Part shown: in pieces, positions 2,215 through 62,501 of the stretch | Numbering within the stretch: position 1 is the stretch's first letter | Layout: each line of letters opens with the position of its first letter | Source: Nannocystis pusilla | GTDB taxonomy: Bacteria > Myxococcota_A > Polyangia > Nannocystales > Nannocystaceae | DNA length: 64,000 nucleotides | Assembly (NCBI RefSeq): GCF_020073745.1 | Contig: NZ_JAIRAU010000047.1 | Span: 285,990-349,989, forward strand | Direction: 5' to 3' | Made by a program: the position numbers and the translations under genes | Notes under the pieces: generated by a model | Seen by the model: the letters and a program-made list of their open reading frames with translations, nothing else | The model's database searches: none | Told to the model about the DNA's origin: nothing

Positions 2215-2475
2215 GGAGATTCATCCTCTTTGAAACGTGTTCTACACACCTAGAACGCGTTTCATTTCCAGGCAAGAGGCCTACCTCGCGCGATGCCGAG
2301 CATTCCTGCTCGGACGCCCGTCTCAGCCGCCATCTCGCCCTCTCCGCCGCGGCCGACCGCCGCGATTGTCGCGCGCGAATCCGCCCCGCGCGGGGCCGAC
2401 CAGGCGAACCGGCGTCGGCATGCCCCGGAGGACATGTCCTTCAGGTCACTATCACATGTCCCGAGAGACAGCCCA

Positions 2476-8713: not shown

Positions 8714-9785
<1,072 letters not shown>

Positions 9786-9787
<2 letters not shown>

Positions 9788-9868
9788 GCATGTCCTCGAG
9801 AGCCTGTCGATACGCGCGTGTCCGTCCGGGCATGTCCCCGCGAACAGGCTCCTTCGCACATGTCCTCT
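9786..9868. repeat. six-unit phased palindromic array (14-bp period: ...gagCATGtcc / agCCTGtcg / gcgCGTGtcc / gggCATGtcc / gaaCAGGctc / gcaCATGtcc)
   Basis: CATG/CCTG/CGTG/CAGG cores fall at 9789, 9803, 9817, 9831, 9845 and 9859, exactly 14 bp apart. The array spans the malK stop and the MalE-F start. Confidence 0.85.
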
Positions 9869-12027
9869 GCCTCATCTTCGCCCTGCTCGCCGCCCTCGCC
9901 CCCGCCCGCGCGCGGGCCGACGACCTGCGGCTGTGGCACGCCTACCGCGACGCCGAGGCCGCCGCCCTGGTCGAGGTCGTCGAGCGCTTCAGCGCGGCCA
10001 CCGGCCACCGCGTCGAGCTGCTGGCCGTCGCCCACGAGAGCTTCGCCAGCAAGCTGGTGGCGACCATCCCGCGCGGCCAGGGGCCCGACGTCTTCATCGA
10101 CTCGCACGAGCGCCTCGGCGACTACCGCCAGCGCGCCCTCGTCGGCCCGGCGACCGCGGCGCTCGACGACCCCGCCGTCTACTCCGCGCAGTCGCTGGCC
10201 GCGGTCACCCGGGACGGCGTCGTCTGGGGCGTGCCGCTGAGCGCCAAGTCGGTCGCCCTGTTCGTCAACACCGGTCTCGTCGGACATGTCCCGAAGACCC
10301 TGGAGGAGATCGCCGCGCTGTCGCTGCCCGCCGGCGTCTACCCGCTCGCCTACGAGGCCCAGAGCGCCTACGGTCACATGCCGCTGCTTGCGGCCTTCGG
10401 CGGGCGCATGCTCGCCGAGGACGCCTCCTTCGGGTTCGTCGGACCGGCCGCCGAGCGCTCGCTGGCGTTCGCGCGCGAGCTCGCCGAGCGCGGCGCCGTC
10501 CCGCGCGACGCCGACGGTGCGCTGGTCGCCGACCTGTTCCGCAGCGGTCGGGCCGCGTTCGCGATCAGCGGTCCGTGGCTGGTCGGCGACCTCGCGCAGG
10601 TCCGCTTCGCCTGGCGCGTCATCCCGCTGCCCGTCGTCGCCGAGACCGGCCTGCCGATGCGCCCGCCGCTGACCGTCGAGGCCGCCATGCTGTCGCCGCA
10701 GGGCGCCGCCAAGCCGGCCGCGCTGGCCCTGGCCCGCGCTCTCGGCGGCGCCGACGCGGCCGAGCTGCGCCAGCGCCAGGCCGGCACCCTGTCCGTGAGG
10801 ACAGACGTACCTGTCCCCGAGGACAACCCCGTCCTCGCCGGCTTCCGCGCCCAGGCCGAGCTCGCCGAGCCGATGTCGGCCGACCCGGCGATGCGCTCGA
10901 CCTGGGAGCCGGCCTTCCGCGCGATCCGCAAGGTCCTGCGCGGCCAGGCCGACCCCGCCGAGGCCCTCGCCGAGGCCGCGCACCGCTTCGCCGACGTGCG
11001 CCGCCCCCCGCCGGCCGCCGCCTCGCCGACCCCCGCGCTGTTGCTGCTCGGCCTCGGCCTCCTGCTCGTCGCGTTCCACCTCGTCCGCCGCGCCCGCGAC
11101 CCCGACGCGCGCCAGGCATTGCGCCGCTCGCTGCCCGCCTACCGCTATGTCGCCCACAGCGTCGTCGTCGTCGGCCTGCTGGTGTTCGTCCCGCTGATCG
11201 TCGGCGCCGCCACCTCGCTGTTCGCCGGCCGCCCCGGCGAGGGCTACTACGTCGGCCTCGCCAACTTCGTCGAGATCCTCACCGCCCGCGGCGGCCCCCT
11301 GCTCGCCACCGGCTCGTTCTGGTTCGTCCTCCTCGTCACCTTCCTGTGGACGGCCGTCAACGTCGTCCTCCACCTCGGCATCGGCCTCGCGCTCGGCCTC
11401 GTGCTGTCGCGCCCGACCCTGCGCCTGCGCGCGCTCTACCGCGTGCTGCTGATCATCCCCTGGGCCGTCCCCAGCTACGTCACCGCCCTGGCGTGGAAGG
11501 GCATGTTCCACCAGCAGTACGGCGCCGTCACCGGCCTGATCCACGCCGTCAACGACCTGTTCGGCACCAGCGTCGAGCCGATCGCCTGGTTCTCGCGCTT
11601 CGCCACCGCCTTCGCCGCCAACGTCGCCACCAACGTGTGGCTCGGCTTCCCCTTCATGATGGTCGTCACCCTCGGCGCGCTCACGGCCGTGCCCGCCGAC
11701 GTGCTCGAGGCCGCCGAGGTCGACGGCGCCTCGCGCTGGCAACGCCTCACCCGCGTCACCCTGCCGATGATCCGCCCCGCCCTCGCCCCGGCCGTCACCC
11801 TCGGCGCGATCTGGACCTTCAACATGTTCAACGTCGTGTTCCTCGTCTCGGGCGGCGACCCCGACGGCGCGACCGACATCCTCGTCAGCGAGGCCTACCG
11901 CTGGGCCTTCACCCGCGAGGCCCAGTACGGCTACGCCGCCGCCTACGCCGTCCTGATCTTCCTGCTCCTGCTCGTCACCACCCGCCTGCCGGCCTGGCTG
12001 GCCCGCCGCTCGGAGGCCGCGCGATGA
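9832..12027 (+). CDS. fused maltose/maltodextrin-binding protein (MalE-like) and ABC permease (MalF-like)
   Basis: Single stop-free frame. Signal peptide 'MSPRTGSFAHVLCLIFALLAALAPARARA'. The MalE-like solute-binding domain is followed, without a stop, by a permease with the EAA-type motif 'EAAEVDGASRWQRLTRVTLPMIRPAL'. An alternative start at ATG 9784 overlaps the malK stop. The N-terminus is encoded by a 6-unit palindromic array. Confidence 0.7.
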   Translation: MSPRTGSFAHVLCLIFALLAALAPARARADDLRLWHAYRDAEAAALVEVVERFSAATGHRVELLAVAHESFASKLVATIPRGQGPDVFIDSHERLGDYRQRALVGPATAALDDPAVYSAQSLAAVTRDGVVWGVPLSAKSVALFVNTGLVGHVPKTLEEIAALSLPAGVYPLAYEAQSAYGHMPLLAAFGGRMLAEDASFGFVGPAAERSLAFARELAERGAVPRDADGALVADLFRSGRAAFAISGPWLVGDLAQVRFAWRVIPLPVVAETGLPMRPPLTVEAAMLSPQGAAKPAALALARALGGADAAELRQRQAGTLSVRTDVPVPEDNPVLAGFRAQAELAEPMSADPAMRSTWEPAFRAIRKVLRGQADPAEALAEAAHRFADVRRPPPAAASPTPALLLLGLGLLLVAFHLVRRARDPDARQALRRSLPAYRYVAHSVVVVGLLVFVPLIVGAATSLFAGRPGEGYYVGLANFVEILTARGGPLLATGSFWFVLLVTFLWTAVNVVLHLGIGLALGLVLSRPTLRLRALYRVLLIIPWAVPSYVTALAWKGMFHQQYGAVTGLIHAVNDLFGTSVEPIAWFSRFATAFAANVATNVWLGFPFMMVVTLGALTAVPADVLEAAEVDGASRWQRLTRVTLPMIRPALAPAVTLGAIWTFNMFNVVFLVSGGDPDGATDILVSEAYRWAFTREAQYGYAAAYAVLIFLLLLVTTRLPAWLARRSEAAR

Positions 12028-12074
12028 CCCACCGCCGACGCCCGTCTCGTCGCCCCCCGCCGACGCGTCCCTTC

Positions 12075-12127
12075 GAGCATGCCCCTGCGACCATGTCCTT
12101 CGGGTCATGCCCCTCACGACATGCCCT
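12075..12127. repeat. four-unit phased array of GMCATG(Y)CC units (period 14-15 bp) in the malF-malG intergenic region
   Basis: 'gagcatgcccc tgcga ccatgtcc ttcggg tcatgcccc tcacg acatgccc'. Confidence 0.8.
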
Positions 12128-12163
12128 GACGACCATCCACCCCGCCATCATCGAGGTCGGCCG

Positions 12164-17944: not shown

Positions 17945-18290
17945 GGACATGCTCTCCAAAACATGTCCTCCAAAACATTATCGTAAGGACATGTCCTCGA
18001 CGGCCTCCTGCTCGCCCCTCCTTCGGCGCCCAGCGCTGCGCCGCCGGGCCCCCACTGCGCGGAGCGCCGCCTCGCTCGCCGCGCCGGGAAGGACTGGTCC
18101 TGCGCACCGACGCCGGCCGTTTGATGTCCACCATCCTCGTCATTCCCCGCCCGGCTCGAGCCACGCTCTCGCCGCTCGTGACGCCCCGCGACGACCTGTC
18201 CCGCCCGGACAGAGCGCCGCTCGCGTCGCTCTCGTGACCCCCGCGGCGCACCTGCTCCCCCGGGTTCGAGTCCCGCTCGCGTCGCCCGTC

Positions 18291-18806
18291 ATGACGCCTC
18301 GCGGCAAGACGCGCTACCCTCCGCCCGTGCCACACGACCCCCAGGGCTGGATCGACGCGCTTCACCTCGTCCCGCACCCCGAGGGCGGGCACTACCGCGA
18401 GACCTACAGGGCCGGGCTCGCCGTCGAGCGCGACGGCCGGCGGCGCAGCGCCTCGACCGCGATCTACTACCTCCTGCGCCACGGCGAGCGCTCGCGGCTG
18501 CACCGGATCCGCAGCGACGAGCTGTGGCACTTCCACGCCGGCGACGGGCTCCAGGTCCACGTGTTCGACGCGCGCGGCCACGCCGTCCTGCGGCTCGGCC
18601 TCGACCTCGCGGCCGGCGAGGCCCCGCAGCAGTGGGTGGCCGCCGGCGCGTGGTTCGGCGCCGAGGTCGAGCGGCCGGGCGGCTGGGCGCTCGTCGGCTG
18701 CACCGTCGCCCCGGGCTTCGAGTTCGCCGACCTCGAATTCGCCGACCGCGACGCGCTCCTCCGCGCCCACCCGGCCCACGCCGACGTCATCGCCCGCCTC
18801 GCCTGA
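18291..18806 (+). CDS. cupin domain protein (DUF985-like)
   Basis: 171 aa starting at ATG 18291 (MTPRGKTRYPP...). 'HPEGGHYRETY' and 'WHFHAGD' resemble the DUF985 cupin family. Confidence 0.55.
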   Translation: MTPRGKTRYPPPVPHDPQGWIDALHLVPHPEGGHYRETYRAGLAVERDGRRRSASTAIYYLLRHGERSRLHRIRSDELWHFHAGDGLQVHVFDARGHAVLRLGLDLAAGEAPQQWVAAGAWFGAEVERPGGWALVGCTVAPGFEFADLEFADRDALLRAHPAHADVIARLA

Positions 18807-18926
18807 AGATCGCGGTCACGCGCCTGCGGCCCTGAATATTCCCCGGGAACCTCGCCGGGGCGGCGCTGTCTGCCGCTCCCGAGCGACGCGCGTGCGGCCG
18901 GTGGCGGCCGACCTGTCCGTCGCGAC

Positions 18927-19487
18927 ATGTCCATTTCGCCAGCTGACTCATCGCTGCCATCGGAGGACCCCGCCGTGCCCACCCGCAAGCCGCCCGAGGA
19001 AGAGACCGTCCAAGCCGACCTCCTGCCCGTCATGAACATCATGTTCTTGCTGATCCCCGCCTTGCTGCTGGCGATGGAGTTCGCCAGCATGGCCCAGATC
19101 TCGGTCGCCGTCCCGCGCACCGTCAGCGACGTGACCGCGCGGCCGAAGGATCCCGGCCAGCCCGAGCTCGGCTTCAAGGTGGCGATCGGCCGCGACGGCT
19201 TCCGCACCCGCTCCGGCGGCGCCGACGCCGGCCCGGGCACGATCCCCCTGAGCGGCGGCGCCTACGACTACGCCGCCCTCGCCGCCGCCGCCCGCGACCT
19301 CAAGCAGCTGTTCCCCACCGAGTCGACCGTCACAATCACCGCCGAGGGCGACGTGCCGATGGACGTCCTCGTCCGCACCATCGACGTCCTCCGCGGCGAC
19401 AGCTGCAAGCTCGGCGGCTGGGCCCGCGGCGAGCAGCCCGGCGACGGCTGCCTGTTCTGGACGCCGGTGATCGAGAGCGTCGGCTGA
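18927..19487 (+). CDS. ExbD/TolR-like biopolymer transport protein (tentative)
   Basis: 186 aa. Single N-terminal TM 'LLPVMNIMFLLIPALLLAM', similar to the ExbD signature, followed by a periplasmic domain. The start ATG lies inside a GACATGTCC palindromic unit. Confidence 0.4.
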   Translation: MSISPADSSLPSEDPAVPTRKPPEEETVQADLLPVMNIMFLLIPALLLAMEFASMAQISVAVPRTVSDVTARPKDPGQPELGFKVAIGRDGFRTRSGGADAGPGTIPLSGGAYDYAALAAAARDLKQLFPTESTVTITAEGDVPMDVLVRTIDVLRGDSCKLGGWARGEQPGDGCLFWTPVIESVG

Positions 19488-20292: not shown

Positions 20293-22821
20293 ATGATCGG
20301 ATCCCCGGAGCCTGGCGTGCGCAGCGGCTCGCGCCGAACCTCGCAAGCCGGGCCGCGGGCCGGCTGCTCGTGCGAGCTGCTGCTCTCGCTGTGCGCCGCC
20401 GACTCGGTCCAGGGCGTCCTGGCCGCCCACGGCCTCGACGTCGCCCGCCTGCGCGCCGTCGTCGACGAGCTCCACGCCGAGGTCGAGACCGAGCCGGCCG
20501 ACTGGCGCCTGCGGATCACCCAGCGCGGCGGTCGCGCCGCCGACCCCGACCTCGACCTCCTGCTCGCCCTCGTCCGCTCCGCCGACTCGCACGCCTACCA
20601 GCTGCTCGAGCGGGCCGGCGCCGCCTGCGGCGCCCTGCGCAAGCTGCTGATCGACCGCCTGCGCGCGCTCGAGGCCGCCGCGCTCACCGGGACAGGTCCC
20701 TCGCGCCATGTCCCATCCGGCATGTCCTCCGAGACAGCCCTGCCGCGGCGCCCCGTCGTCCAGCGCATGTCGACCATCGGCGCCGCCGGCGAGCGCCCGG
20801 TCCGCCGCTCGCTCGCCGACGCGCGCGCGAGTGACATGTCCCCGCGGACAGGTGCCGGCGACGCCCCGCCCCGCCCCGCCCGCGGCGGCGGCGCCCGCAC
20901 CTGGCCCGAAGGCCAGCCTGCCGCGCGCCCGGCCCGACCGACCGACGTCCGCACCTGGCCCGAAGACCACCCGGCCCGCGCCCGCCTCGACGCCCCCCGC
21001 GCCCGGCCCGAAGACCCGCGCGCGCCGACCCGCGCCCAGCCGCGCCTGCCCGCCCGCCCCGAGCCGGGCCGCGCCTCGGCCCTGGCCCTCAAGCCAGGTC
21101 CAGGCGCCCAGGTCGCGCCGGCCGGCGAGCCCGAGCCGCGCCCGGCCCCCGCGCCCCAGCCCGAGGCCCGCAGCCAGCGCCTGAGCCCGATCGACCCCTC
21201 GGCCCTGCCGCCGCTGCACGGCCGCGAGGGCGAGCTGGCGCGCCTCGCCGACGCCGTCCTGCGCCGCTCGCCGCGCCCGCCGCTGCTCGTCGGCCCGGCC
21301 GGCAGCGGCCGCACGCTGGTCGCCAAGCACCTCGCCGGCCTGCTGCACCAGCCGGTCTTCTACCTGTCCGCGACCCGCTACGAGGACGAGGACGGCCTGC
21401 GCGCCGACCTCGCCGCCGTCGCCAAGCAGGGCGGCGTCGCCATCCTCGACGACCTCGACCGCCTCGGCGGCGACGGCCCGCCGGCGCTGCTCGGCGCCCT
21501 CGCCAAGGCCTGGTCTTCGGGACAGCCGCCGATCGTCGCCGTCGCCTCGCCCGAGGGTCAGGCCCGCCTGTGCGCCTGGGCCCCCGGCCTGGCCGCCGCC
21601 CTCGACCTCGTCACCCTCCAGCCGCTCGAGGGCGACGACCTGCGCGCCGCCGTGGCCGCCGCCGCGCCCGCGGTGCTGGCCCAGCACGGCCTGTCTCTCG
21701 GGTCAGGTAGTCGCCTCGCCGAGCTCGTGCGCCTGTCCGACCGCTTCCTCGCCGGCCTGGCCCAGCCCGGCCGCAGCCTCGACCTGCTCGACCTCGCCTG
21801 CGCCCGCACCGCCCGCGAGGGCCGCGGCGCCGTCCAGCGCGACACCTGGATCGACATCGTCTGCGAGCGCAGCGGCGTCCCGCGCGAGCGCCTCGAGGGC
21901 CAGGGCCACCAGGACATGCTCGAGCTCGAGGCCGAGCTCGCGCGCAAGGTCGTCGGCCACGAGCACGCCCTCGCCGCCGTCGCCCAGCTGATCCGCAGGA
22001 ACCGGGCCGGCTTCGGCTCGCAGCGCCCGATCGCCACCGTCCTCCTGCTCGGGCCCAGCGGCGTCGGCAAGACCGAGATCGCCAAGGCCCTGTGCGGCGC
22101 CCTGTTCGACCGCCCCGACGCGTTCGTCCGCCTCGACATGAGCGAGTACGCCGAGGCCCACGCGGTCGCGCGGATCGTCGGCGCCCCGCCCGGCTACGTC
22201 GGCCACGAGCAGGGCGGCGCGCTGACCGACCCGCTGCTCAAGCAGCCGCACTGCGTCGTCCTCCTCGACGAGATCGAGAAGGCCCACCGCGACGTCCACC
22301 AGCTGCTGCTGCAGGTGTTCGACGAGGGCCGGCTCACCGACGGCCGCGGCCGCACCATCGACTTCCGCCACGCCGCGATCATCATGACCTCGAACCTCGG
22401 CGCCACCTGCCTCGACGCCACCGGCGACGCCCGCCTCGACGAGGCCCGCGTGCTCGAGGCCGCCCGCGCCGCCTTCCCGGTCGAGCTGTGGAACCGCATC
22501 GAGGCCCCGCTGGTGCTCCACCCGCTCGGCGGCGAGCAGCTGGCCCGGATCTGCGCCCGCCTGGTCCGCGCCTCCTCCGACCGCCTGCTGCGCGAGCGCG
22601 GCATCCGCTACCGCCTCACCGAGGCCGCCACCCGCCACGTCGTCTCGCTGTGCGGAAAGGACATGTCCCTTGGGGCACGTCCCTTGCGACATGTCCTTAC
22701 GCGCAGCGTCGAGGCCCTCCTGGCCGACGCGATCCTGCGCGGCCAGATCCGCGCCGGCATGCAGGTCGAGGTCGATCTCGACCACACCGGCGCGCTGTGC
22801 CTGCTGGCCTCGCGCGCCTAG
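20293..22821 (+). CDS. ClpA/ClpB-family AAA+ ATPase with degenerate first nucleotide-binding domain
   Basis: 842 aa. Clp_N-like N-terminus. D1 P-loop is 'GPAGSGRT' (Lys to Arg). D2 is canonical: 'GPSGVGKTE' and 'VVLLDEIEKAH'. A sensor-2 region 'GARPL' is present. A roughly 150-aa Pro/Arg/Ala low-complexity insert lies between the domains. Confidence 0.8.
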   Translation: MIGSPEPGVRSGSRRTSQAGPRAGCSCELLLSLCAADSVQGVLAAHGLDVARLRAVVDELHAEVETEPADWRLRITQRGGRAADPDLDLLLALVRSADSHAYQLLERAGAACGALRKLLIDRLRALEAAALTGTGPSRHVPSGMSSETALPRRPVVQRMSTIGAAGERPVRRSLADARASDMSPRTGAGDAPPRPARGGGARTWPEGQPAARPARPTDVRTWPEDHPARARLDAPRARPEDPRAPTRAQPRLPARPEPGRASALALKPGPGAQVAPAGEPEPRPAPAPQPEARSQRLSPIDPSALPPLHGREGELARLADAVLRRSPRPPLLVGPAGSGRTLVAKHLAGLLHQPVFYLSATRYEDEDGLRADLAAVAKQGGVAILDDLDRLGGDGPPALLGALAKAWSSGQPPIVAVASPEGQARLCAWAPGLAAALDLVTLQPLEGDDLRAAVAAAAPAVLAQHGLSLGSGSRLAELVRLSDRFLAGLAQPGRSLDLLDLACARTAREGRGAVQRDTWIDIVCERSGVPRERLEGQGHQDMLELEAELARKVVGHEHALAAVAQLIRRNRAGFGSQRPIATVLLLGPSGVGKTEIAKALCGALFDRPDAFVRLDMSEYAEAHAVARIVGAPPGYVGHEQGGALTDPLLKQPHCVVLLDEIEKAHRDVHQLLLQVFDEGRLTDGRGRTIDFRHAAIIMTSNLGATCLDATGDARLDEARVLEAARAAFPVELWNRIEAPLVLHPLGGEQLARICARLVRASSDRLLRERGIRYRLTEAATRHVVSLCGKDMSLGARPLRHVLTRSVEALLADAILRGQIRAGMQVEVDLDHTGALCLLASRA

Positions 22822-25169: not shown

Positions 25170-25203
25170 CCTATCCTGAAGGTCATCTGCGAGGATCGAT
25201 CGC

Positions 25204-26946
25204 TTGAGCGCCGACCGCATCCACGGCGACACCGCCAACCTGAAGAGCAGCCAGTCGCGCGCCCTCCAGCGCCTCGGCGAGCGCCGCGTCCCCGCCGACC
25301 GCGTCATCTCGGCCGCCCTCGCGCGCGACCTGCTCGACCTCTCGCACCAGCTCGGGCGTCAGCTCGGCCTCTTCATCGACCGCCGCGGCCAGGTCGAGCG
25401 CGTCATCCTCGGCGACGCGCACAGCCTCAGCCTGCCGGAGTTCGCCCGCGTCCGCGGCGCCCTCGGCCGCTTGCGCGGCGTCCGCCTGATCGTCACCCAC
25501 CTCGTGCCCGACCCGCTCACGCGCGAGGAGCTGGCCGACCTCGCCAAGCTGCGCCTCGACCTCGTCGCCGGCGTGCACCGCGGCCCCGCCGGCATCCAGC
25601 TCGACCTCGCCAGCCTCACCCCGGCCGCGCCCGGGGCCGCCGAGGTGTTCACGCTGCGGACCTGGCCGAGAGTACCTGTCTCGACGCTCAGCCGCGATCT
25701 GTCGACCCGACCCGACGACGAGACGCCCCCGCCAGCCGACGCGCCCGACCTGCCGATCGACTTCACCGGCTTCATCCGCGAGCTCGAGGCCAAGCTCGTC
25801 GCCGCGACCACCGACGCGCGGGCCGAGGCGCGCGGCACCAAGGCGACCGCGCTGGTGATCCACGGCGGCGGCCCCGAGGTCCCGGCGCGGATCAGCGAGC
25901 TGCGCGAGCTGTGCCGCACCGCCGGCATCCAGCTGATGGACCTCGTGACCCAGCGGCGCCCGCAGCCCGACCCGCGCACCTTCTTCGGCCAGGGCAAGCT
26001 GCGCGAGGTCATCGTCCGCGCGCTCGAGCAGGACTGCGAGCTCCTGATCTGCGACCCCGACCTCACGCCCTCGCAGGCGCACGCGATCGCCGACGAGACC
26101 GAGCTCAAGGTCATCGATCGCACCACGCTGATCCTCGACATCTTCGCCCAGCACGCCCGCAGCGCCGACGGCAAGCTGCAGGTCGAGCTGGCCCAGCTGC
26201 GCTACATGTTGCCGCGCATGGTCGGCAAGGGCACCGCGATGTCGCGGCTCGCCGGCGGGATCGGCGGGCGCGGCCCCGGCGAGACCAAGCTCGAGATCGA
26301 TCGCCGCCGCGCCAAGGAGCGGATAAGCGCCCTGACGCGCCGCCTCGCCGAGCTGCGCCAGCGTCGCGACCAGCGCCGCGCGCTGCGCCGCAGCACCAAC
26401 GTCCCGGTGGTCGCGATCGTCGGCTACACCAACGCCGGCAAGTCGAGCCTGCTCAACACCGTGACCCAGAGCGAGGTCCTGGCCGAGAACAAGCTGTTCG
26501 CCACCCTCGACCCGACCGTCCGCCGGATCCGCTTCCCCGAGGACCGCGAGGTCGTCCTGCTCGACACCGTCGGCTTCATCCGCGACCTCCCGCCGGCCCT
26601 GCTGCAGGCGTTCAGCGCCACCCTCGAGGAGGTCGCCGACGCCGACCTGCTGCTGCTCGTCGTCGACGCCAGCGACCCCGACCGCGACCAGCAGCGCGCC
26701 GCCGTCGAGGCGATCCTCGGCGACCTCGGCGCCGGCAAGGTCCCGCGCCTGCTCGTGTTCAACAAGTGCGACCTGCTCGCGCCGGAGGAGCTGGCCGCCC
26801 GCCGCGAGGACGCCGGCCCCGACACCTTCTTCATCAGCGCGATCGACCGCCGCAGCACCTTCCCGCTCATGCACGCCATCGAGACGCACCTGTGGGAGCG
26901 CGGAATGATCGAGCGCGCGGCCACGTTCACGGGTGACGAGCCCTGA
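25204..26946 (+). CDS. hflX: GTPase HflX
   Basis: 580 aa with a TTG start. HflX N-terminal domain. G1 'GYTNAGKSSL', G3 'DTVGF', G4 'NKCD'. Its stop overlaps the uppP start (ATGA overlap). Confidence 0.85.
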   Translation: MSADRIHGDTANLKSSQSRALQRLGERRVPADRVISAALARDLLDLSHQLGRQLGLFIDRRGQVERVILGDAHSLSLPEFARVRGALGRLRGVRLIVTHLVPDPLTREELADLAKLRLDLVAGVHRGPAGIQLDLASLTPAAPGAAEVFTLRTWPRVPVSTLSRDLSTRPDDETPPPADAPDLPIDFTGFIRELEAKLVAATTDARAEARGTKATALVIHGGGPEVPARISELRELCRTAGIQLMDLVTQRRPQPDPRTFFGQGKLREVIVRALEQDCELLICDPDLTPSQAHAIADETELKVIDRTTLILDIFAQHARSADGKLQVELAQLRYMLPRMVGKGTAMSRLAGGIGGRGPGETKLEIDRRRAKERISALTRRLAELRQRRDQRRALRRSTNVPVVAIVGYTNAGKSSLLNTVTQSEVLAENKLFATLDPTVRRIRFPEDREVVLLDTVGFIRDLPPALLQAFSATLEEVADADLLLLVVDASDPDRDQQRAAVEAILGDLGAGKVPRLLVFNKCDLLAPEELAARREDAGPDTFFISAIDRRSTFPLMHAIETHLWERGMIERAATFTGDEP

Positions 26947-27821
26947 TGTCCGCCCCCGAGCTCGACCTCGGCCTCGCCGCCCTCCTCGGCGCCCTCCAGG
27001 GCGTGGCCGAGTTCCTGCCGATCTCCTCGTCCGGCCACCTCGCCCTGGCCCAGCGCGTCGCCGGCCTCGACGCCGGCGCCGGCGGCCACTCGTTCAACAT
27101 CGTCGTCCACGCCGGCACCCTGCTGGCCGTCCTGTTCCACTACCGCGGCGACCTGCTCGCGCTGGCCCGCGCCGTCTTGCGTCCGGGACATGTCCCCCAG
27201 CACATGCCCGATGCGCCAGGCTCGGAAGGACATGTCCCCTCGGGCAGCTCACCGAGCGACGCGCGAGCGCTGCTGCTCGCGCTCGTCCTCGGCACCTTGC
27301 CGCTGGCCGCCGCCCTCGCCCCGCCGGTCGAGAACCTCGTCATCGCCGCCGAGCACCACCCCCGGGCCATCGGCGCCTGCTTCCTCGTCACCGCGGCGAT
27401 GCTCGGCCTGGCCGAGTGGCTGACCCGCCGGCGCCGGAGCCCGCAGGAGGTCCCGCGGCCGCTGCAGGCGCTGCTCATCGGCCTCGCGCAGCTCGTCGCC
27501 ATCCTGCCCGGCATCTCGCGCAGCGGCTCGACGATCGCCGCCGCCATGGGCCTCGGCCTCGGCCGCCTGCCGGCCGCGCGCTTCTCGTTCCTGCTGGCGA
27601 TCCCCGCCATCCTCGGCGCCGCGCTCAAGGAGGCGCTCGACCTGATGAAGGAGGGCCTGCCCGCCGTCGACCCGCTCGCCTTCGTCGTCGGCTTCTTCGT
27701 CAGCTTCGTCGTCGGCGTCGCCACCCTGCGCGTGCTGCTGGTCCTGCTGGTCCGCGTCGGCGTGGTGCCCTTCGTGCCCTACCTCGTCGTCCTCGGCCTC
27801 GCCGTCCTCGCCCTCGGCTAG
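26946..27821 (+). CDS. uppP: undecaprenyl-diphosphate phosphatase UppP/BacA
   Basis: 291 aa. Conserved 'EFLPISSSGH' and 'PGISRSGSTI' motifs and 8 TM segments. The loop at 27181-27245 is encoded by palindromic units. Confidence 0.85.
   Translation: MSAPELDLGLAALLGALQGVAEFLPISSSGHLALAQRVAGLDAGAGGHSFNIVVHAGTLLAVLFHYRGDLLALARAVLRPGHVPQHMPDAPGSEGHVPSGSSPSDARALLLALVLGTLPLAAALAPPVENLVIAAEHHPRAIGACFLVTAAMLGLAEWLTRRRRSPQEVPRPLQALLIGLAQLVAILPGISRSGSTIAAAMGLGLGRLPAARFSFLLAIPAILGAALKEALDLMKEGLPAVDPLAFVVGFFVSFVVGVATLRVLLVLLVRVGVVPFVPYLVVLGLAVLALG
27185..27240. repeat. three palindromic units (GGGACATGTCCC, CACATGCCCG, GGACATGTCCC; core spacing 14 and 28 bp) inside the uppP coding sequence
   Basis: Direct reading. 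The units encode loop peptide 'RPGHVPQHMPDAPGSEGHVPSG'. Confidence 0.85.
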
Positions 27822-28196
27822 GAGCCTGTCCGGGAAATCGCGGGGCCGGAGGCGCGGGGCCGTGGAGTTCTGGGTGACGGCGGGCACGGAGCGGCGGAGC
27901 GGGTCCCTCGCTTCGGCGGGGCCCTCCCAGGCAACGTGCTCGGCGCCCTCGGGCTTCGATATCGATCTGTCGTTGAGGACAGGTTCGTACGTGCCTCACG
28001 GACGATGGCGCCTGCGCGCGGTTGCCTGCGGCCCCTCCCGCCGGCGTCCCACTCCGCCGCTCCGTGCCCGCCTGCGAAGAGCGTCGCCGGCCCCGCTTGT
28101 CGCCGCGCGGGAGCCTCACGGAGCGGCGGCGAGTGCGGCGCGTCCGGCTTCGTTTCTACCTGTCCTAAAGAACAGGACCGATCCACCATAACCTTG

Positions 28197-28236
28197 TAGA
28201 CATGCCCATCACGACATGCCCGTACGAGCATGCCCT
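28197..28236. repeat. three direct GACATGCCC units at 14-bp spacing, preceded by GTCCT-N7-AGGAC inverted repeat (28160-28178)
   Basis: 'tagacatgcccatcacgacatgcccgtacgagcatgccct', in the convergent uppP/queA intergenic region. Confidence 0.8.
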
Positions 28237-28245
28237 ACCGACGGC

Positions 28246-29357: not shown

Positions 29358-30722
29358 GTGTCCGCCCGCACGCTCCTCGCCGCCGCCTCCCTCGCCCTGC
29401 TCGCCCTGGCGCCCGCGTCGGTCCGCGGCGGCGAGTCGAGCGCCGAGCGCCTGCACCGCAAGGGCGTGCACTGCATGGAGGAGATCGAGCGCCGCGACTG
29501 CGCGATCGAGCACTTCGAGGAGCTGCTCGACGAGCGCACCGATCGCCGCGAGCTCGTCACCGACGGCCTCCTGCGCCTCGTCAAGCTGTACGAGAAAGAG
29601 GATCGACCCGAGGACCTCAAGGCCGCGCTGCGCCGCTTCTGGGACGCCGGCAAGACCGACACCCGCCGCGGCCACCTGCCCTACACCGCCCGCTTCCTGC
29701 CGAAGGACTTCGACGTCGTCTTCCACGCCCACATGCAGCGCCTCATGGCCGCGCCGCTGGCCAAGCAGCTCGACGAGATCGCCGAGTACGTCATGACCTG
29801 CGACCCGCACGTGCGCGCCCAGCTCGACGACGTCCGGATCCTCCGCAAGGCCCAGCGCAAGGCCCGAGAGACAGGTGTGACTGTCCAAAAGGCCATGTCG
29901 GACGTCGTCGCCGAGGAGCACAAGCGGACCGAGGCGTACAAGAAGCGGCGCGCCCAGGCCGAGGCCGAGGGGCGGCCGCGCCGGCCCGAGCCGGTGTTCG
30001 CCGACGCCACCTGCCAGGTCGCGCGCGCCCTCGGCGACGACACCGCGGCGGTCTGGACCCGCGGCGCGTTCGCCCTCGCGCACGGCGACTTCACCCGCTC
30101 CGCCGCGATCATCGAGATCCCCGACCTCCCCGCCAAGCTCGAGGCCGCGGTCGCCGCCGGCCGCCTGCTCCCGCGCGGCGAACGGGCCTATGCGCTCACG
30201 CCGCTGCGCTACCAGAACGGCGAGGTGCTGCTGCGCGTGCTCGACGGCGGCGAGCTGGTCGTCGCGCCGCCGGGCGTCATGAACGAGATCGCCGCCAACT
30301 ACGCCCGCGGCAAGCGCACGCTGCCCCGCGAGGTCGACCGCCTCGTCGTCGGCGTGCCCGTCGACGCCGGCTTCTTCGCCGTCGCCACCGAGGCCGCCGT
30401 CCGCGAGCTCGGCTTCGGCGGCATGTCGAAGGGCCGCCGCGGCCTGCTCCAGCTGCTGCTGCCGCGCCCCGAGGGCCTGCAGATGGCCGGCGTGGCCCAC
30501 GAGTACTTCGGCTTCTTCCTCCGCATGCCGACCGACACCCCGCTCAAGGCCGGCGCGCTCGTCGAGGTCGTCCAGCGGATGATCGCCAACCAGGCCGAGG
30601 CCGACTCCGAGAGCGCCGACTTCCTGCGCCTGCTCGACGTGACTCAAGCCACGGACAAGCGCGCGCTCCTCCTGTCGTACGTCATGTCGCGCCGGCAGAT
30701 CGAGACGATCGTGCTGCGCTGA
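29358..30722 (+). CDS. hypothetical secreted protein
   Basis: 454 aa. Signal peptide 'LLAAASLALLALAPASVRG'. No catalytic motif recognised. Confidence 0.45.
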   Translation: MSARTLLAAASLALLALAPASVRGGESSAERLHRKGVHCMEEIERRDCAIEHFEELLDERTDRRELVTDGLLRLVKLYEKEDRPEDLKAALRRFWDAGKTDTRRGHLPYTARFLPKDFDVVFHAHMQRLMAAPLAKQLDEIAEYVMTCDPHVRAQLDDVRILRKAQRKARETGVTVQKAMSDVVAEEHKRTEAYKKRRAQAEAEGRPRRPEPVFADATCQVARALGDDTAAVWTRGAFALAHGDFTRSAAIIEIPDLPAKLEAAVAAGRLLPRGERAYALTPLRYQNGEVLLRVLDGGELVVAPPGVMNEIAANYARGKRTLPREVDRLVVGVPVDAGFFAVATEAAVRELGFGGMSKGRRGLLQLLLPRPEGLQMAGVAHEYFGFFLRMPTDTPLKAGALVEVVQRMIANQAEADSESADFLRLLDVTQATDKRALLLSYVMSRRQIETIVLR

Positions 30723-30732
30723 GCGGCGAGGC

Positions 30733-32445
30733 GTGGCAGTCTTGTCCCCCGTGGCGACCCCCCTGTCGGCCCTCTCGCTGATCGCCTGGCTCGCGCTCGC
30801 CGGCGCGGCGCCTGGCGGTCCGCGCATGTCCCTCGGCGCAGGTCCTGACGGCCAGGTGCGTTCGGGCATGTCCGAAAGTCCAGGCCCTCTGCTGGCCCTC
30901 GCGCCGGCCCGCGGCGGCAAGGCCAAGCCCCCCGCGCCCGAGCCCGCGCCGGCCCCCGCGCCGACCTACGGCCCCGAGCAGGCCCGCGCCGACATCGAGC
31001 TCGTGCTGACCGGCCGCGGCCAAGACTACCTGCAGGCCCGCGCGCGGCTCGAGCAGCACCCGACCGTCGCCGCGCCGCTGGTCACCGCGCGCATGACCGC
31101 CACGCCCGCGCCCACCGCGGTCGAGCAGCGCCGCCTGCTCGCTCTGCTCGGCGGCATCGCCCGCCCCGAAGACGTCCCGCTGTTCGCCGACGCCATGCGC
31201 CGCGACGTCGCCGCCGCGGTCAAGCAGTCGCAGGAGCAGGGCATCGAGCTGCCGGCCGCCGAACCGTGGCGCGAGATCTTGCGCGCCCAGGGCCCGGCGG
31301 CCGCGCCCGCGCTCACCGGGCTCGTGGCCGAGAAGTCGTTCAGCGAGGAGCTGCGCGGCCTCTTGCTCGCCGACCTCGTCGCCGTCACGCCGGCCGACAA
31401 GCTGCCCGAGCTCGTCGCGCTGGTCGGCCTCGGCACGCCGAGCCTGCGCGCCGCGCTGCGCCAGGCGATCGCCCGGCGCGCGCACGCGTCCGCCGGCGAG
31501 CGGGCCCAGCTCGTGCAGGTCGTCGACGCCGCGATCGAGGCCGGCGAACCGGCGCGCCTGCCCGGCCTCGTGCTGCTGCGCGCCGCGATCGGCGGCAGCG
31601 ACGACGCTCCGTTCACCCGGCGCGCGGCCGCCCTCGCCGAGGACGCCGCCGCCGAGTTCGCCGCCCGCGTCGCCGCGCTCCGCGTGCTCGTCGCCCGTCG
31701 TAGCGACCCCGCGGCGCAGACGGTGCTCGCGCGCCTCGCCGAGCAGCACCTGCCCGCCGACAAGCGCGTCGAGCTGCGCAGCGAGATCCTCGGCAGCCTC
31801 GCCCTCGCCGGGCTCGAGCCCGGCCCTGCCGCCGCCGTCGTCGACCGCCTGCAGCTCACCGGCGCCGACGCGCCGCGGGTCGCCGTCGCGGCCTTCTCCG
31901 TCGCCACCCTGCCGGCCGACGGCGCCTGGCTCGACGTCAGCCAGCGCCACGCCTGGCCCGAGGTCCGCGCCGCCGCGCTCGCCCGCGTCGACGGCCCGTG
32001 CTCCGCGGGCGTCCTCCGCCGGCTGCGCGACGGCACCAGCACCTCCGGCAACACCTTCGAGGCCGACGCCGCCGTCGCGCGCGAGGTCATCGCCGCGCTC
32101 GGCCGCTGCGGCGGTCCCGACGCCTTCGCCGCGCTGCAGGCCGTGGTCGTCAGCGCCGAGCAAAACGTCGACCGGCGGGCCGAGGCCGCGCGCCAGCTCG
32201 TCGACCGCCACGGCAGCGCCGGCGCCGACGTCGTCGCCGCCGTGCTGCGCAGCACCGACGACCTCGCGGTCGCGCTCCGCCTCGTGCGCGCCCTGCAGCG
32301 CTACGCCGACGACGAGGCGGCCCCCTCCGACGACGTGCGCACGGCCCTGTGCGCCGCGAGCAAGCGCCAGGAGCTGGCCACGATCGCCCAGCGGGCCGTC
32401 CGCGGCCTGTTCCCCGACCTCGACGACCCCTGCGCGGGCAACTGA
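30733..32445 (+). CDS. hypothetical protein, probable HEAT/ARM-like helical repeat protein
   Basis: 570 aa, Ala/Leu/Arg-rich with repeated helical hairpins. The N-terminal 50 aa are encoded by a 5-unit 14-bp phased palindromic array, so the true start may be the internal ATG at about 30866. Confidence 0.4.
   Translation: MAVLSPVATPLSALSLIAWLALAGAAPGGPRMSLGAGPDGQVRSGMSESPGPLLALAPARGGKAKPPAPEPAPAPAPTYGPEQARADIELVLTGRGQDYLQARARLEQHPTVAAPLVTARMTATPAPTAVEQRRLLALLGGIARPEDVPLFADAMRRDVAAAVKQSQEQGIELPAAEPWREILRAQGPAAAPALTGLVAEKSFSEELRGLLLADLVAVTPADKLPELVALVGLGTPSLRAALRQAIARRAHASAGERAQLVQVVDAAIEAGEPARLPGLVLLRAAIGGSDDAPFTRRAAALAEDAAAEFAARVAALRVLVARRSDPAAQTVLARLAEQHLPADKRVELRSEILGSLALAGLEPGPAAAVVDRLQLTGADAPRVAVAAFSVATLPADGAWLDVSQRHAWPEVRAAALARVDGPCSAGVLRRLRDGTSTSGNTFEADAAVAREVIAALGRCGGPDAFAALQAVVVSAEQNVDRRAEAARQLVDRHGSAGADVVAAVLRSTDDLAVALRLVRALQRYADDEAAPSDDVRTALCAASKRQELATIAQRAVRGLFPDLDDPCAGN
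30821..30885. repeat. five-unit 14-bp phased array (CATGTCC / CAGGTCC / CAGGTGC / CATGTCC / CAGGCCC) at the 5' end of the HEAT-like gene
   Basis: Cores at 30824, 30838, 30852, 30866 and 30881. Confidence 0.8.
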
Positions 32446-35210: not shown

Positions 35211-35240
35211 AAGGGCCATGACCGCGAGGTCATGGCCCTT
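35211..35240. terminator. perfect 13-bp-stem hairpin AAGGGCCATGACC-gcga-GGTCATGGCCCTT between convergent genes (candidate bidirectional terminator)
   Basis: Direct reading. It lies between the lipoprotein stop (35178) and the HU-like gene stop (35299). It is followed by imperfect direct repeats 'gggacag...caggagcgcgagccgg' at 35255-35318. Confidence 0.5.
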
Positions 35241-35298
35241 CATTCATGACCTCTGGGACAGGAGCGCGAGCCGGCTGCCATGTCCCGCGGGACAGCTC

Positions 35299-37802: not shown

Positions 37803-39108
37803 TCAGTTCGTCGCCGCCAGCGCGTCGAGCAGCCAGGCCGCCAGCGCCGCCTTGGCGATCGGCGGGCCCGACGCGCGCACGGCGATCGCGTCGCCGTCGC
37901 GCGCCAGCAACAGGCCGGCGTTGGTCGCCGACGCGAAGCCGACCCCGGGCGCGCCGACGCGGTTGACGAAGATCGCGTCGGCGCCCTTGGCCCGCAGCTT
38001 GGCCGAGCCGAGCCGGATCAGCTCCTGCTGCAACCTGTCCTCGGGGCCATCCTCGACCGTCTGCGCGGCGAACCCGAGGAAGCGCGAGCGCGGGGCGCCC
38101 GGCGCCGCGCCGCGGCCGAAGCGGACCGTGAGCGCGGCGAGGATGTCGGGCGCGGCCCGCCAGGCGAGCGTCGGCAGCGTCGCCAGCAGCTCGGCCTTCT
38201 CGAGCTTGCGCGCGGCGCCGCCGTCGATCTCGAGGTCTTGCACCGCCGCGACCATGGCCACCCAGTCACATGGCCCTTGAGACAGCTCGTTCTCCAGCGC
38301 CGCCTGCATCTCGGCCGCGGTCTCGACGTCGACGCGGCGCACCCCCGCCGGCGTGGCCAGCTCGACCGGTCCGGCCACCAGCGTCACCGCGGCGCCGGCG
38401 CGCTGGGCCGCCTCGGCCAGCGCGAAGCCCATCGCCCCGGTCGACGCGTTGGTGACGAAGCGGACCGGATCGATGTACGTGCGCGTCGGCCCGGCCGACA
38501 CCAGCACGCGCTTGCCCGCCCACGGCCCGCGGCCGACGCCGAGCCGCGCCAGCGCGGCGGCGACGATCAGCGGCGGGTCGATCATGCGGCCCTCGCCGAT
38601 CCACCCGCACGCCAGCTGCCCGCGATCGGGCCCGACGAACTCGGCCCCGCGGGCGCGCAGTGTCGCCAGGTTGTCCTGCGTGGCCGGGTGGCGCCACATG
38701 TTCGTGTTCATCGCCGGCGCCCACAGCACCGGCGCGCGCGTGGCCAGCAGCACCGTCGCGGCGAGGTCGTTCGCCAGGCCGTGGGTCGCGCGCGCCAGCA
38801 GGTCGGCGGTGGCCGGCGCGACGACCACCAGGTCGGGCCAGTCGGCGAGCTCGATGTGGCCGACGTGGCCCTCCTCCTCCGGGTCGAGCAGGCGCGTGCG
38901 CACCGGCCGGGTCGACACCGTCGCCAGCGACAGCGCGCTGACGAACGCCTCCGCCGCCGGCGTCATCACCACCTGGACCTCGCAACCGGCGGCGACGAAC
39001 GCCCGCACCAATTCCGGCGCCTTGTAGGCCGCGATCCCGCCGCTGACGATCAGCAGGACGCGACGGCCCCGCGGACGTGTCCCATGGGACATGTCCGTGG
39101 CACCAGCC

Positions 39109-53405: not shown

Positions 53406-55142
<1,737 letters not shown>

Positions 55143-55340
55143 GGTCCTCGGGTCTAAGATTCGCGGGCCGCCCACGCACGCATGGGCGAACCAGCGGAGT
55201 CGACGTAGCGTTTCGGATCGCGAGCGATCGATCAAGCGTGCAAGTCCGCGACGCGCGTCGTCGTGCCAACGAATTTCACCCGCGAAAACACCGACGCGGG
55301 CCGCCCCGGCCGGAGCGACCCGCGCGTCATGCCACATCAC

Positions 55341-57086: not shown

Positions 57087-57453
57087 GGTCGTGTCCTGTA
57101 TGCGAAGCATGTGGGCCGTCCTCGAATGCATGGCGGTCCCGCCTTGATTCCTCATGATTCATGAGTGATCAAGGCCGGTGCCTCGCGCAGCGGTCCGCAG
57201 GCCTCATTGGTGAATCTGCAGCCTCGACCGCGCGAGACCGTCGTTCCGGCGCAGGAAGCACGCGATTCGTCGTCGCTGCCGATGGTGATCCACCGCAAGC
57301 TGTCGAGCTCGCTGGAAGACCACGGGTAGACGTCACATTTGTTCGACTCGCGCGATTCGACGCAACATCACACCATCGATTCCGCCCGCTCGAGACGCGA
57401 CGAGGCGCGCACGTCGCCGTGCGCGCCGCGTCACTCGTACCTCGAGCCGTCGA

Positions 57454-59187
<1,734 letters not shown>

Positions 59188-59503
59188 GGCGAAGGTATCC
59201 TTGAACGTGGTGGCGCGCCCTTCCAGGACGGGCACGCCGCTGCCGCAGCGGCGCGCGCGCGGAATGACGTGAATCAACCGGGCCACGATTTCGGACTTCG
59301 CCGCAGGATCAAGCGTCCACCGACCTGGTGCCTTCAAACCATGCCTGACGACGATCGTGGCAAATCTGCGCCCGCAGAGGCGCTGCCGCCGCGCGCCGCT
59401 CGTTCGCTACTCCAGCGACCGCGAACCTTCGATCCGGACAACAGAGGCGCAGACTCCGCCGCAGCTGCAGAGACTGCCATGAATCAACTTCATCGCCTGT
59501 CCT

Positions 59504-60031
59504 TCAGAACCTGTCCGAAGGGACCTGTCCACTTGTTGTCGTCACGCGCCCCCGCTGGCGAACGGCGGTCAGCCGCGCCGGACCGATCCCGCGCACACGC
59601 CTCAAGTCATCGACCGTGGAGTACGGTCTCCCTTCGATGATTCGCCGCGCGAGCTCGGGACCGATCCCGGGCATACTCTCGAGCTCGCTGGCCGACGCTC
59701 GATTGAGGTCGACAGGGACCGCGAGCGCCTCGAGATCGTCTCCTCGCATTCGCCCCCAGCCGAGCTCGCCAGGTCGCGGAGATCCGCCTGCGCACAATGA
59801 TGCACGCACGATCGCGTCGCCGTGGTTCAGCACCCCGCTCGCCGTGGCGTCGCCGCACACGCTCGCGACGTCGCGCGGCGCCTCGTCGTCGCAGCGCAGC
59901 ACGCCGTCGACCTCGACGGCGAATTCGCAGGCGACCCGCACCAGCAGCTCCGGCGCCGCCGGCCTCAGCCATGCCGCCAGCGCCACCGCGAGCGCGGCGA
60001 TCAGCGCGAGCCCTGCCCCGACGCGCATCAC
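59504..60031 (-). CDS. comEA: ComEA-like helix-hairpin-helix DNA-binding protein
   Basis: 175 aa. N-terminal TM 'GAGLALIAALAVALAAWL'. C-terminal tandem HhH 'DLNRASASELESMPGIGPELARRIIEGRPYSTVDDLRRVRGIGPARL'. The last 10 codons are encoded by palindromic units. Confidence 0.7.
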   Translation of the reverse strand: MMRVGAGLALIAALAVALAAWLRPAAPELLVRVACEFAVEVDGVLRCDDEAPRDVASVCGDATASGVLNHGDAIVRASLCAGGSPRPGELGWGRMRGDDLEALAVPVDLNRASASELESMPGIGPELARRIIEGRPYSTVDDLRRVRGIGPARLTAVRQRGRVTTTSGQVPSDRF

Positions 60032-61708: not shown

Positions 61709-61766
61709 GCGCGCACCGCCGCGCGCGCCGCAAGCTGACTATTCGGACATGTCTCTCAAGACATGG

Positions 61767-62501
61767 CTATTCGGCCAGCGCGGCGAGGTAGTCGGCGACG
61801 GCCCGCGCGAGCCCGACGAACAGCGCGTGGCTGATGAGCGCGTGGCCGATCGAGGCCTCGTCGAGGTGCGGCAGGCGGCTGAACAGCGGCAGGTTGTCGA
61901 GGTCGAGGTCGTGACCGGCGTTGACGCCGAGCCCGAGCGAGTGCGCCAGCTCGGCCGCGGCGGCGAACTGCGCCAGCGAGGCCGCGCCCGCGCCGGCCGC
62001 GAAGGCCCGCGCGTACGGCTCGGTGTACAGCTCGATGCGCTGCGCGCCGACGTCGGCGGCCCAGCGCACCGCGGCGGGGTCGGCCTCGATGAACAGCGAG
62101 ACCCGCACCCCGAGCTTGTGCAGCCGGGCCACGACCGCCCCGAGCTCGGCGCGCGAGGTGTCGGGCGGCCACCCGGCCTGGCTCGTGATCTCGCCCGGCC
62201 GCACCGGCACGAGGGTGCACTGGTGCGGCCGCAGCTCCTCGACCATCGCCAGCAGGTCGGGCCGCGGGTCGCCCTCGATGTTGAACTCGACGCGATCGCG
62301 CAGCGGCGCCAGCTCGGCCGCGATCGCCCGCGCGTCGGCGGCCCGGATGTGGCGCTCGTCGGCCCGCGGGTGCACGGTGATGCCCGGCGCGCCGGCCGCG
62401 ACGATCGTCCGCACCGCCTCGATCACGCTCGGGACGTCGCCGCCGCGGGCGTTGCGGAGGGTGGCGACCTTGTTGACGTTGACGCTGAGGCGGGCGGCCA
62501 T
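61767..62501 (-). CDS. pdxJ: pyridoxine 5'-phosphate synthase PdxJ
   Basis: About 244 aa from ATG 62501 (MAARLSVNVNKVATLRNARGGDVPSVIEA...). PdxJ TIM-barrel signature ('GITVHPRADERHI', 'NIEGDP'). Confidence 0.85.
   Translation of the reverse strand: MAARLSVNVNKVATLRNARGGDVPSVIEAVRTIVAAGAPGITVHPRADERHIRAADARAIAAELAPLRDRVEFNIEGDPRPDLLAMVEELRPHQCTLVPVRPGEITSQAGWPPDTSRAELGAVVARLHKLGVRVSLFIEADPAAVRWAADVGAQRIELYTEPYARAFAAGAGAASLAQFAAAAELAHSLGLGVNAGHDLDLDNLPLFSRLPHLDEASIGHALISHALFVGLARAVADYLAALAE

Follow-up and report, generated by a model that had tools for sequence, protein, structure and literature searches.

The uppP gene in a 64,000-nt stretch of the Nannocystis pusilla genome (contig NZ_JAIRAU010000047.1, positions 285,990 to 349,989; the whole stretch is called the window here) carries a short palindromic tract within its reading frame. 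How did such a tract come to lie inside the gene of a membrane phosphatase, and what keeps it there? The initial annotation had suggested that palindromic units were inserted or expanded in uppP in the manner of Rickettsia palindromic elements (RPEs). We found that the tract probably belongs to a Nannocystis-specific family of phased arrays, which lies in frame in uppP and whose motif is maintained at the DNA level.

The host gene is a member of the UppP/BacA family. PF02673 was present on relatives of the encoded protein, and both re-entrant motifs (EFLPISSSGH and PGxSRSGxT) were invariant in the alignment of UppP sequences (alignment A1). The E. coli BacA structures 5oon and 6cb2 matched the protein over residues 8-288. 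The closest UppP was that of Nannocystis radixulma (96% identity), followed by those of the remaining Nannocystis species (65-88%), while an exact look-up of the protein sequence returned no record. The peptide first quoted for the tract, RPGHVPQHMPDAPGSEGHVPSG, was confirmed as residues 79-100 of UppP, and the tract was resolved into four 14-bp units. Each unit consists of a 10-bp palindromic core, GGACATGTCC, and a free 4-nt spacer. Units 1 (27186, GGACATGTCC.ccca) and 4 (27228, GGACATGTCC.cctc) are perfect, unit 2 reads GCACATGCCC.gatg (27200) and unit 3 (27214, CGCCAGGCTC.ggaa) is degenerate. A weak fifth unit is located at 27242-27255.

The array region aligns between transmembrane helices 3 and 4 (H3 and H4) of E. 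coli BacA, so that the proposed position in a loop between conserved helices was borne out. Both termini of BacA are periplasmic and its active site faces the periplasm (PMC5852022), and helix counting on this topology would therefore place the H3-H4 loop in the cytoplasm. In an AlphaFold model built from alignment A1 (predicted template modelling score, pTM, 0.81), the predicted local distance difference test score (pLDDT) was below 50 at residues 1-3 and 82-101 only. The array-encoded part of the loop is thus predicted to be disordered.

The uppP loci of six Nannocystis species and of many outgroups were compared together with 10-kb flanks. The six Nannocystis loci were syntenic with positions 16.7-38 kb of the window. 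In alignment A1, UppP of Enhygromyxa, Pseudenhygromyxa and other Nannocystaceae was 269-275 residues long and H3 ran straight into H4. Nannocystis UppP was 291-374 residues long, with ~16-100 extra residues exactly at the H3-H4 position, rich in GHVP, GHAP and PAGHVPADS. In-register 14-bp units began right after the codons for ...VLRP in all six species. At the codon level, the loops of the outgroups (including Enhygromyxa, Plesiocystis and other Nannocystaceae) comprised 5-9 residues encoded by DNA without units. An uncultured Nannocystis (L012) had an intermediate loop with a single GGACCTGTCC unit, and the long loops of two loci (L007 and L009) contained in-frame 51-bp tandem repeats with two units apiece. 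The ortholog alignment called for by the initial annotation thus gave the expected outcome: the extra segment of the loop is lineage-specific, coincides with the units and is repeat-derived. The further claim of an in-frame insertion or expansion in an essential gene stood in part. The frame was kept while the loop gained from 16 to ~100 residues, but essentiality was not supported: BacA activity in E. coli is redundant with that of three PAP2 enzymes, four phosphatases in total (PMC4641660).

Two irregularities were noticed in uppP of N. pusilla. In strain Na p29 (L009, 10240-10450) the array includes an in-frame TAA codon and one stretch whose frame differs from that in related sequences, and another N. 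pusilla record (P0030) is annotated as a truncated 247-aa protein with its start inside the uppP array. Either genuine frame switching through slippage of units or homopolymer errors of long-read sequencing could account for these. Between uppP and queA, the convergent gap (27822-28245 in the window) varied from ~100 to ~1200 bp among Nannocystis species and was unalignable between species, the flanking genes being 88-93% identical.

The unit is far in excess in the window, whose G+C content is ~72%. Exact copies of GGACATGTCC numbered 9, against 0.11 expected from shuffles, and sites with at most two mismatches numbered 81, where Markov controls gave 28 ± 5. Paired sites of this kind were spaced with a strict period: 15 pairs were 14 bp apart, 6 were 28 bp apart and 4 were 42 bp apart, which gives 25 pairs at these spacings against 7 over all remaining spacings up to 100 bp. 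About 16 phased arrays were present in the window. Tandem Repeats Finder, run at low score, gave mostly noise in this GC-rich DNA and caught 3 arrays. The matrix built from 164 units has the core G G A C A T/G G T C C and, after it, four almost unconstrained positions. The left/right asymmetry of the units tracked the local GC skew (r = 0.46); the motif thus acts like a true palindrome exposed to background mutation bias. No link between gene strand and unit asymmetry was apparent by inspection, for which no statistical test was made. An oriented or RNA-sense motif was rejected on these two observations. Since 14 is not a multiple of 3, the units are read in all frames, and the three tripeptides previously said to recur in open reading frames (ORFs) of the window were indeed all over-represented (DMS, 9 observed against 0.8 expected; GHV, 7 against 2.4; TCP, 3 against 1.0).

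The family was found in one genus only. The six loci of named Nannocystis species contained 6-13 pairs at 14 bp per 21 kb, and two deeper-branching Nannocystis metagenome-assembled genomes (MAGs) contained one such pair each. The uppP loci of Enhygromyxa, Plesiocystis and all remaining outgroups contained none. When viral contigs were scanned for two phased units, just two incidental matches came back, on unrelated contigs of 44% and 66% GC, so that the units showed no link to phages. The literature on Nannocystis and myxobacterial repeats, and on repetitive extragenic palindromic (REP) sequences and REP-associated Y1 transposases (RAYTs) in Myxococcota, held no description of the repeat, and the family appears to be undescribed in the searchable literature.

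Conservation was determined position by position in 17 orthologous units from seven genomes. The arrays were chosen from the window sequence only, and the six other genomes therefore provided an unbiased test. Mean pairwise divergence at the central C-A-T-G was 0.045, 0.062, 0 and 0, respectively. It was 0.12-0.23 in the outer core, 0.22-0.34 in the spacers and 0.106 in the flanks, which are mostly coding. Core and spacer divergence differed at p = 5e-7, and the spacers diverged ~3 times faster than the flanking coding DNA. The core and its phase are thus kept at the nucleotide level, against a very strong pressure for G+C at third codon positions (GC3), while spacers and amino acids drift. 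Orthologous array positions were common to all seven genomes, and no gain or loss of a whole array between species was seen at the aligned orthologous sites of these genomes. The array that begins at 17945, for example, had the same four-unit register in the N. radixulma comparison (L001), with different spacers. All resolved differences between species were changes of unit number, tandem duplications or unit decay. At 35214, the window and N. radixulma both have a 4-unit array, which duplication of a 56-bp (4-unit) module extends to 8-9 units in the other species.

At the junction of a response-regulator gene and hflX, an 88-bp tandem duplication of a unit-bearing block was observed in N. pusilla only (L009 7800-7890, compared with 25150-25205 of the window). 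In species whose unit is intact, the TGA stop codon of the regulator forms the first three bases of that unit (TGACCTGTCC); in the window the unit has decayed to TGACCTATCC.

The array in the conserved part of the Clp-like ATPase gene showed another mode of origin. It encodes GKDMSLGARPLRHVL, which aligns without gaps with GYDPVYGARPLKRAI of E. coli ClpB, the GARPL motif of the D2-small domain. In each of the seven genomes the array had a GC3 of 0.56, compared with 0.98 for the remainder of the gene. Orthologs of the gene, which is absent from the outgroup uppP loci, were fetched apart. Two sister lineages (L186 and L187) encode D-A-A-L-G-A-R-P-L-R-H-V/L-L there with a GC3 of 1.00 and without units. 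By our count, the three phased units took one change from Ala/Pro to Met and seven synonymous changes, to rare codons that end in A or T. The ortholog of a Myxococcales MAG (GCA_020431275, L188) is intermediate: its GARPLR site reads GGA GCA AGG CCC TTA AGA CAT GTC CTT ACA (GC3 0.59), AGACATGTCC.ttac is present and one unit is clear, which hints that arrays may build up stepwise in related lineages. The comparison shows that an existing, constrained Clp peptide was recoded in place, so that insertion is not the sole origin of arrays. A cut-and-paste element cannot explain this gapless, recoded array, which requires that selection or some biased process act directly on the DNA sequence. An array in the linker of the same gene, at 20690, is read in three frames in turn (T-G-P, R-H-V and G-M-S), again because 14 is not a multiple of 3.

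Array placement was surveyed in 178.6 kb, consisting of the window and 11 metagenome contigs. The metagenome scan gave many chance matches, and the statistics were restricted to contigs of ~73-76% GC with multiple phased arrays. The sample contained 49 arrays of 2-9 units, ~1 per 3.6 kb. Twelve were in frame, with both flanks coding in the same frame, and 37 were at gene edges or intergenic. The in-frame hosts on the metagenome contigs were NadA (at a break in the domain match), two AMP-binding enzymes (inside and at the hinge), UbiA (at the N-terminal edge of the domain) and an ABC ATPase (after the domain), the arrays thus occupying linkers or points of insertion. Gene-edge arrays were mostly at 3′ ends (12-13 of 17), and all six opposite-strand junctions with arrays were convergent. 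Of eight arrays tested, seven gave folds superior to those of shuffled sequences (z from -2.5 to -4.3), and the usual structure was a stem of 10 bp with a 4-nt loop, formed by two neighbouring units. One clear compensated pair was found in units 1 and 2 of the array at 35214, which are reverse complements around a GCGA loop, neither being palindromic by itself.

These placements and folds speak for a structural element of RNA or single-stranded DNA, in which hairpins of unit pairs would act as bidirectional terminators or stabilise the 3′ ends of mRNAs, intragenic copies being unwound by the ribosome and harmless. We consider this unlikely. Compensatory change between neighbouring units exceeded expectation only marginally (54 cases, compared with 43 ± 5.6 for random partners), and conservation lies in the individual core sequences rather than in their pairing. 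The arrays showed no apparent orientation with respect to transcription and no U-tract, and no Rfam family was detected in the window at gathering thresholds. A terminator role would also leave unexplained why a quarter of the arrays are intragenic and why one of them is maintained over a catalytic motif.

Molecular drive without any cis-function is another explanation, of low probability in our judgement. Here an uptake-like preference with recombination, or biased short-patch gene conversion, would let units accumulate where the protein allows. The origin of the clp-like array in place by point changes, the density of arrays and the position of coding copies at weakly constrained protein sites are hallmarks of the DNA uptake sequences (DUS) of Neisseria and the uptake signal sequences (USS) of Haemophilus. 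The arrays are also absent from lower-GC DNA at ~39-59 kb, which is maybe younger. Together with the highly iterated palindrome HIP1 of cyanobacteria, DUS and USS (the latter typical of Pasteurellaceae) resemble our units as motifs of ~8-12 bp that occur about once per few kb in coding and non-coding DNA, are kept beyond the expectation from codon usage, occupy weakly constrained positions and originate in place by point mutation. An excess in both coding and non-coding DNA, with in-place origin, was found here as well. However, DUS and USS are not palindromes, and DUS, USS and HIP1 occur singly or as inverted pairs, whereas the present units are palindromic, unlike DUS and USS, and are set in strictly phased tandem arrays. 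Moreover, we know of no documented competence in Nannocystis.

A mobile selfish element similar to RPEs, to REP sequences and their REPIN derivatives or to miniature transposons, moved by a transposase such as a REP-associated Y1 enzyme, would make uppP the site of a tolerated in-frame transposition. We hold this to be improbable as well. In its favour are the high copy number in a single genus, the enrichment after stop codons and in convergent gaps as in REP sequences and bacterial interspersed mosaic elements (BIMEs), the net insertion in uppP relative to the outgroups and the REP-like hairpin that two adjacent units make. Conserved termini, a target duplication and a conserved spacer are all absent, however, and just the 10-bp core and the phase are common to the arrays. 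Units within an array are heterogeneous, unlike recent copies. The clp-like array was made by recoding with the length unchanged, and comparison of filled and empty sites found a net insertion in uppP but no array-sized polymorphism among the seven genomes. No transposase was noticed in the loci, which represent ~3% of the genome, in the course of work that included no dedicated search for REP-associated transposases.

The likeness to RPEs was sound as an analogy. In both cases lineage-specific palindromic DNA lies in frame in genes and adds a tolerated peptide outside the conserved core; outgroups lack the uppP insert, which the model shows as disordered, and more coding hosts are known. Membership in that family did not hold. 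RPEs are reportedly single elements of ~100-150 bp with a family-wide consensus over the full length, whereas here the phased unit is 14 bp, forms arrays of 2-9 and shares only a 10-bp core; most copies are at gene ends, and at least one arose from recoding. Selfish insertion as the whole story, moreover, is contradicted by the clp-like array, which overwrites a conserved motif without insertion, and by cores that are kept while spacers drift. RPE-like selfish insertion is therefore doubtful as the mechanism. REP, BIME and REPIN sequences are likewise short, GC-rich, clustered, genus-specific palindromic repeats of high copy number that can form hairpins and are sited past stop codons, at operon junctions and between convergent genes. 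REP units are self-folding imperfect palindromes of 20-40 nt, extragenic by definition and tied to RAYTs. Our core, by contrast, has 10 bp and no loop and folds only as two adjacent units; its phase is strictly 14 bp, and a quarter of the arrays are coding, the gene-edge and intergenic majority showing the 3′ bias described above. Mycobacterial interspersed repetitive units (MIRUs) are also dispersed short tandem repeats, situated at gene junctions in operons over stop and start codons and variable in unit number among strains. However, MIRU units are 40-100 bp long, not palindromic and limited to tens of loci per genome, whereas the units here are 14-bp palindromes for which thousands of loci per genome are envisaged.

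Selection on the protein, with GHVP-type His/Pro-rich repeats functional in the UppP loop (e.g. in metal or partner binding) and the palindrome incidental, would fit the recurrence of GHVP, GHAP and PAGHVPADS in the loops of several species but is already contradicted by the intergenic copies of the unit and by its reading in each of the three frames, which a single array can combine, and is made more remote by the faster divergence of spacer-encoded amino acids than of the flanks beside a nearly invariant CATG, the predicted disorder of the loop and the outgroup enzymes that do without the segment.

The preferred explanation is thus an array family maintained at the DNA level. An array was established at the start of the H3-H4 loop in the ancestor of the genus, and its length has changed since then as blocks with units were duplicated in tandem or deleted, presumably through slippage or unequal exchange. 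Only changes that keep the frame survive in uppP, and the loop peptide of the GHV/DMS/TCP type is a tolerated by-product of the DNA motif, not itself selected. Elsewhere, arrays would collect where they are least harmful, namely just beyond stop codons, between convergent genes and in the loops or linkers of proteins. As to what maintains the motif, the conserved core, fixed phase, free spacers, old positions and in-place creation are best explained by a symmetric factor that binds double-stranded DNA. We tentatively infer that the units are sites for such a two-fold-symmetric factor, bound cooperatively at the 14-bp spacing; three units would span 42 bp, that is, four helical turns or 14 codons. 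Symmetric cores at a fixed distance with free spacers are the pattern expected for cooperative binding of symmetric dimers, as in the tandem, evenly spaced short cores of operator arrays (MetJ metboxes, ARG boxes and Fur hexamers). Those operator arrays are confined to promoters of one regulon, whereas here there is one array per ~3.6 kb, most often at a 3′ end but also inside genes, with a 14-bp period unlike that of MetJ, ARG or Fur.

Several points weigh against this explanation. Neither a binding protein nor methylation nor any other recognition system came to light, uptake and methylation systems not having been searched for, so that the functional part is one that we infer. Kept cores and free spacers could also result, without any cellular function, from concerted evolution through gene conversion between arrays or from a drive of the uptake type, and the bias towards 3′ ends and convergent gaps, with stable hairpins, fits an RNA or single-strand structural role too. 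The gene calls rest on a GC3 heuristic, and the Nannocystis-type DNA examined amounts to ~0.4 Mb, much of it syntenic.

Somewhat more speculatively, the arrays may form a second code at the DNA level, with thousands of phased arrays read by a factor that oligomerises, for instance a protein of nucleoid organisation, a roadblock or a protein of uptake/recombination. If so, the requirement for arrays would be written into coding DNA through loop insertions (uppP and NadA) and synonymous recoding (the Clp-type ATPase), and the genome-wide system of cis-elements would have no described counterpart in period, symmetry and overlap with coding sequence. The ortholog comparisons show that a dispersed bacterial repeat can shape proteins in two ways, by in-frame loop inserts whose length varies widely in one enzyme within a genus and by recoding of a conserved catalytic motif against extreme codon bias. 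The 14-bp phase and the nearly invariant CATG centre offer a testable handle on the reading factor. The arrays also account for odd length variation and possible frameshift calls in Nannocystis annotation, and provide a genus-specific signature for binning metagenome contigs. The features of the window are listed in Table 1.

Table 1. Coordinates of uppP, its loop segment and the unit arrays in the window.
Feature	Position	Strand	Evidence or remark
Off-phase pair of units, spaced 22 bp, in the gap separating two minus-strand genes	2430..2462		
6-7 units over the stop codon of a malK-like gene (9787) and the start/N-terminus of the next gene (MalE-like signal peptide)	9772..9869		
Five units, junction of the upstream transport-gene ORF (end 12027) and the following permease gene	12061..12130		
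Four units from the base after the stop codon of a CLC channel gene (17944)	17945..18000		
Two units; an exbD-like ORF has its first start codon in the ATG of unit 2 (18927)	18909..18936		
Three units, convergent gap after exbD	19535..19576		Fold with 10-bp stem and 4-nt loop, z = -4.3
Three units, in-frame, linker after the Clp_N-like region of the clp-like gene (TGPSRHVPSGMSSE)	20690..20731		Orthologous in all six species
Two units, same clp-like linker (DMSPRTG)	20832..20859		
Three units over the conserved sensor-2 motif (KDMSLGARPLRHVL) of the Clp/ClpB-type AAA ATPase gene, length unchanged	22659..22700		
uppP (undecaprenyl-diphosphate phosphatase, BacA family), 291 aa	26946..27821	+	ORF; PF02673 on relatives; E. 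coli BacA structure matches
Lineage-specific H3-H4 loop segment (RPGHVPQHMPDAPGSEGHVPSGSSPSDAR)	27180..27266	+	Alignment A1; codon-level outgroup comparison; AlphaFold pLDDT
In-frame array of four 14-bp units encoding residues 81-99	27186..27241		Sequence; register kept in six other Nannocystis genomes
Three units, convergent uppP-queA gap, ending 6 nt from the queA stop codon	28198..28239		
Five units close to the 5′ end of ORF 30643-32445; conserved in every species	30808..30877		
Four units, intergenic; units 1 and 2 (GGCCATGACC and GGTCATGGCC) exact reverse complements	35214..35269		
Two units between the ribBA stop and the coaBC start; ATG of one unit in frame with coaBC	39073..39100		In-frame ATG read from sequence
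Three units, intergenic, CCTG-centre variant	59493..59534		
Two units, junction of two minus-strand genes	61745..61772		

Other repeats and compositional features were observed in the window. No phased arrays are present in the 20 kb from 39100 to 59500, most of which, from ~44 kb on, is of lower G+C (0.67-0.71 against 0.72-0.78 elsewhere). Three paralogous minus-strand genes (53406-59406) are located inside this stretch, which may be more recently acquired DNA. An intergenic tandem repeat at 18146-18305 has a period of 56 bp (4 x 14), and each copy holds two family units, GACCTGTCC.cgcc.CGGACAGAG. The block is absent from the N. radixulma locus, which is otherwise 96-98% identical.

ORF 36157-37788 on the minus strand contains a 57-bp tandem repeat (36959-37486, 9.2 copies), which encodes 19-aa repeats at the N-terminus of its product. 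Judged by eye, the C-terminal half looks like a family-4 uracil-DNA glycosylase. BLAST of 36959-37486 against N. radixulma gave several overlapping matches, which suggests that the copy number differs in that species. The peptides TWPEGQ, TWPEDH and TWPSGQ recur in the Pro/Ala/Arg-rich linker of the clp-like gene (20890-21200) and in the N-terminus of the glycosylase-like protein (37480-37700). Peptides of the TWPEGQ type are encoded by DNA of the type ACCTGGCC.cgaa.GGCCAG, and these sequences look like degenerate phased units.

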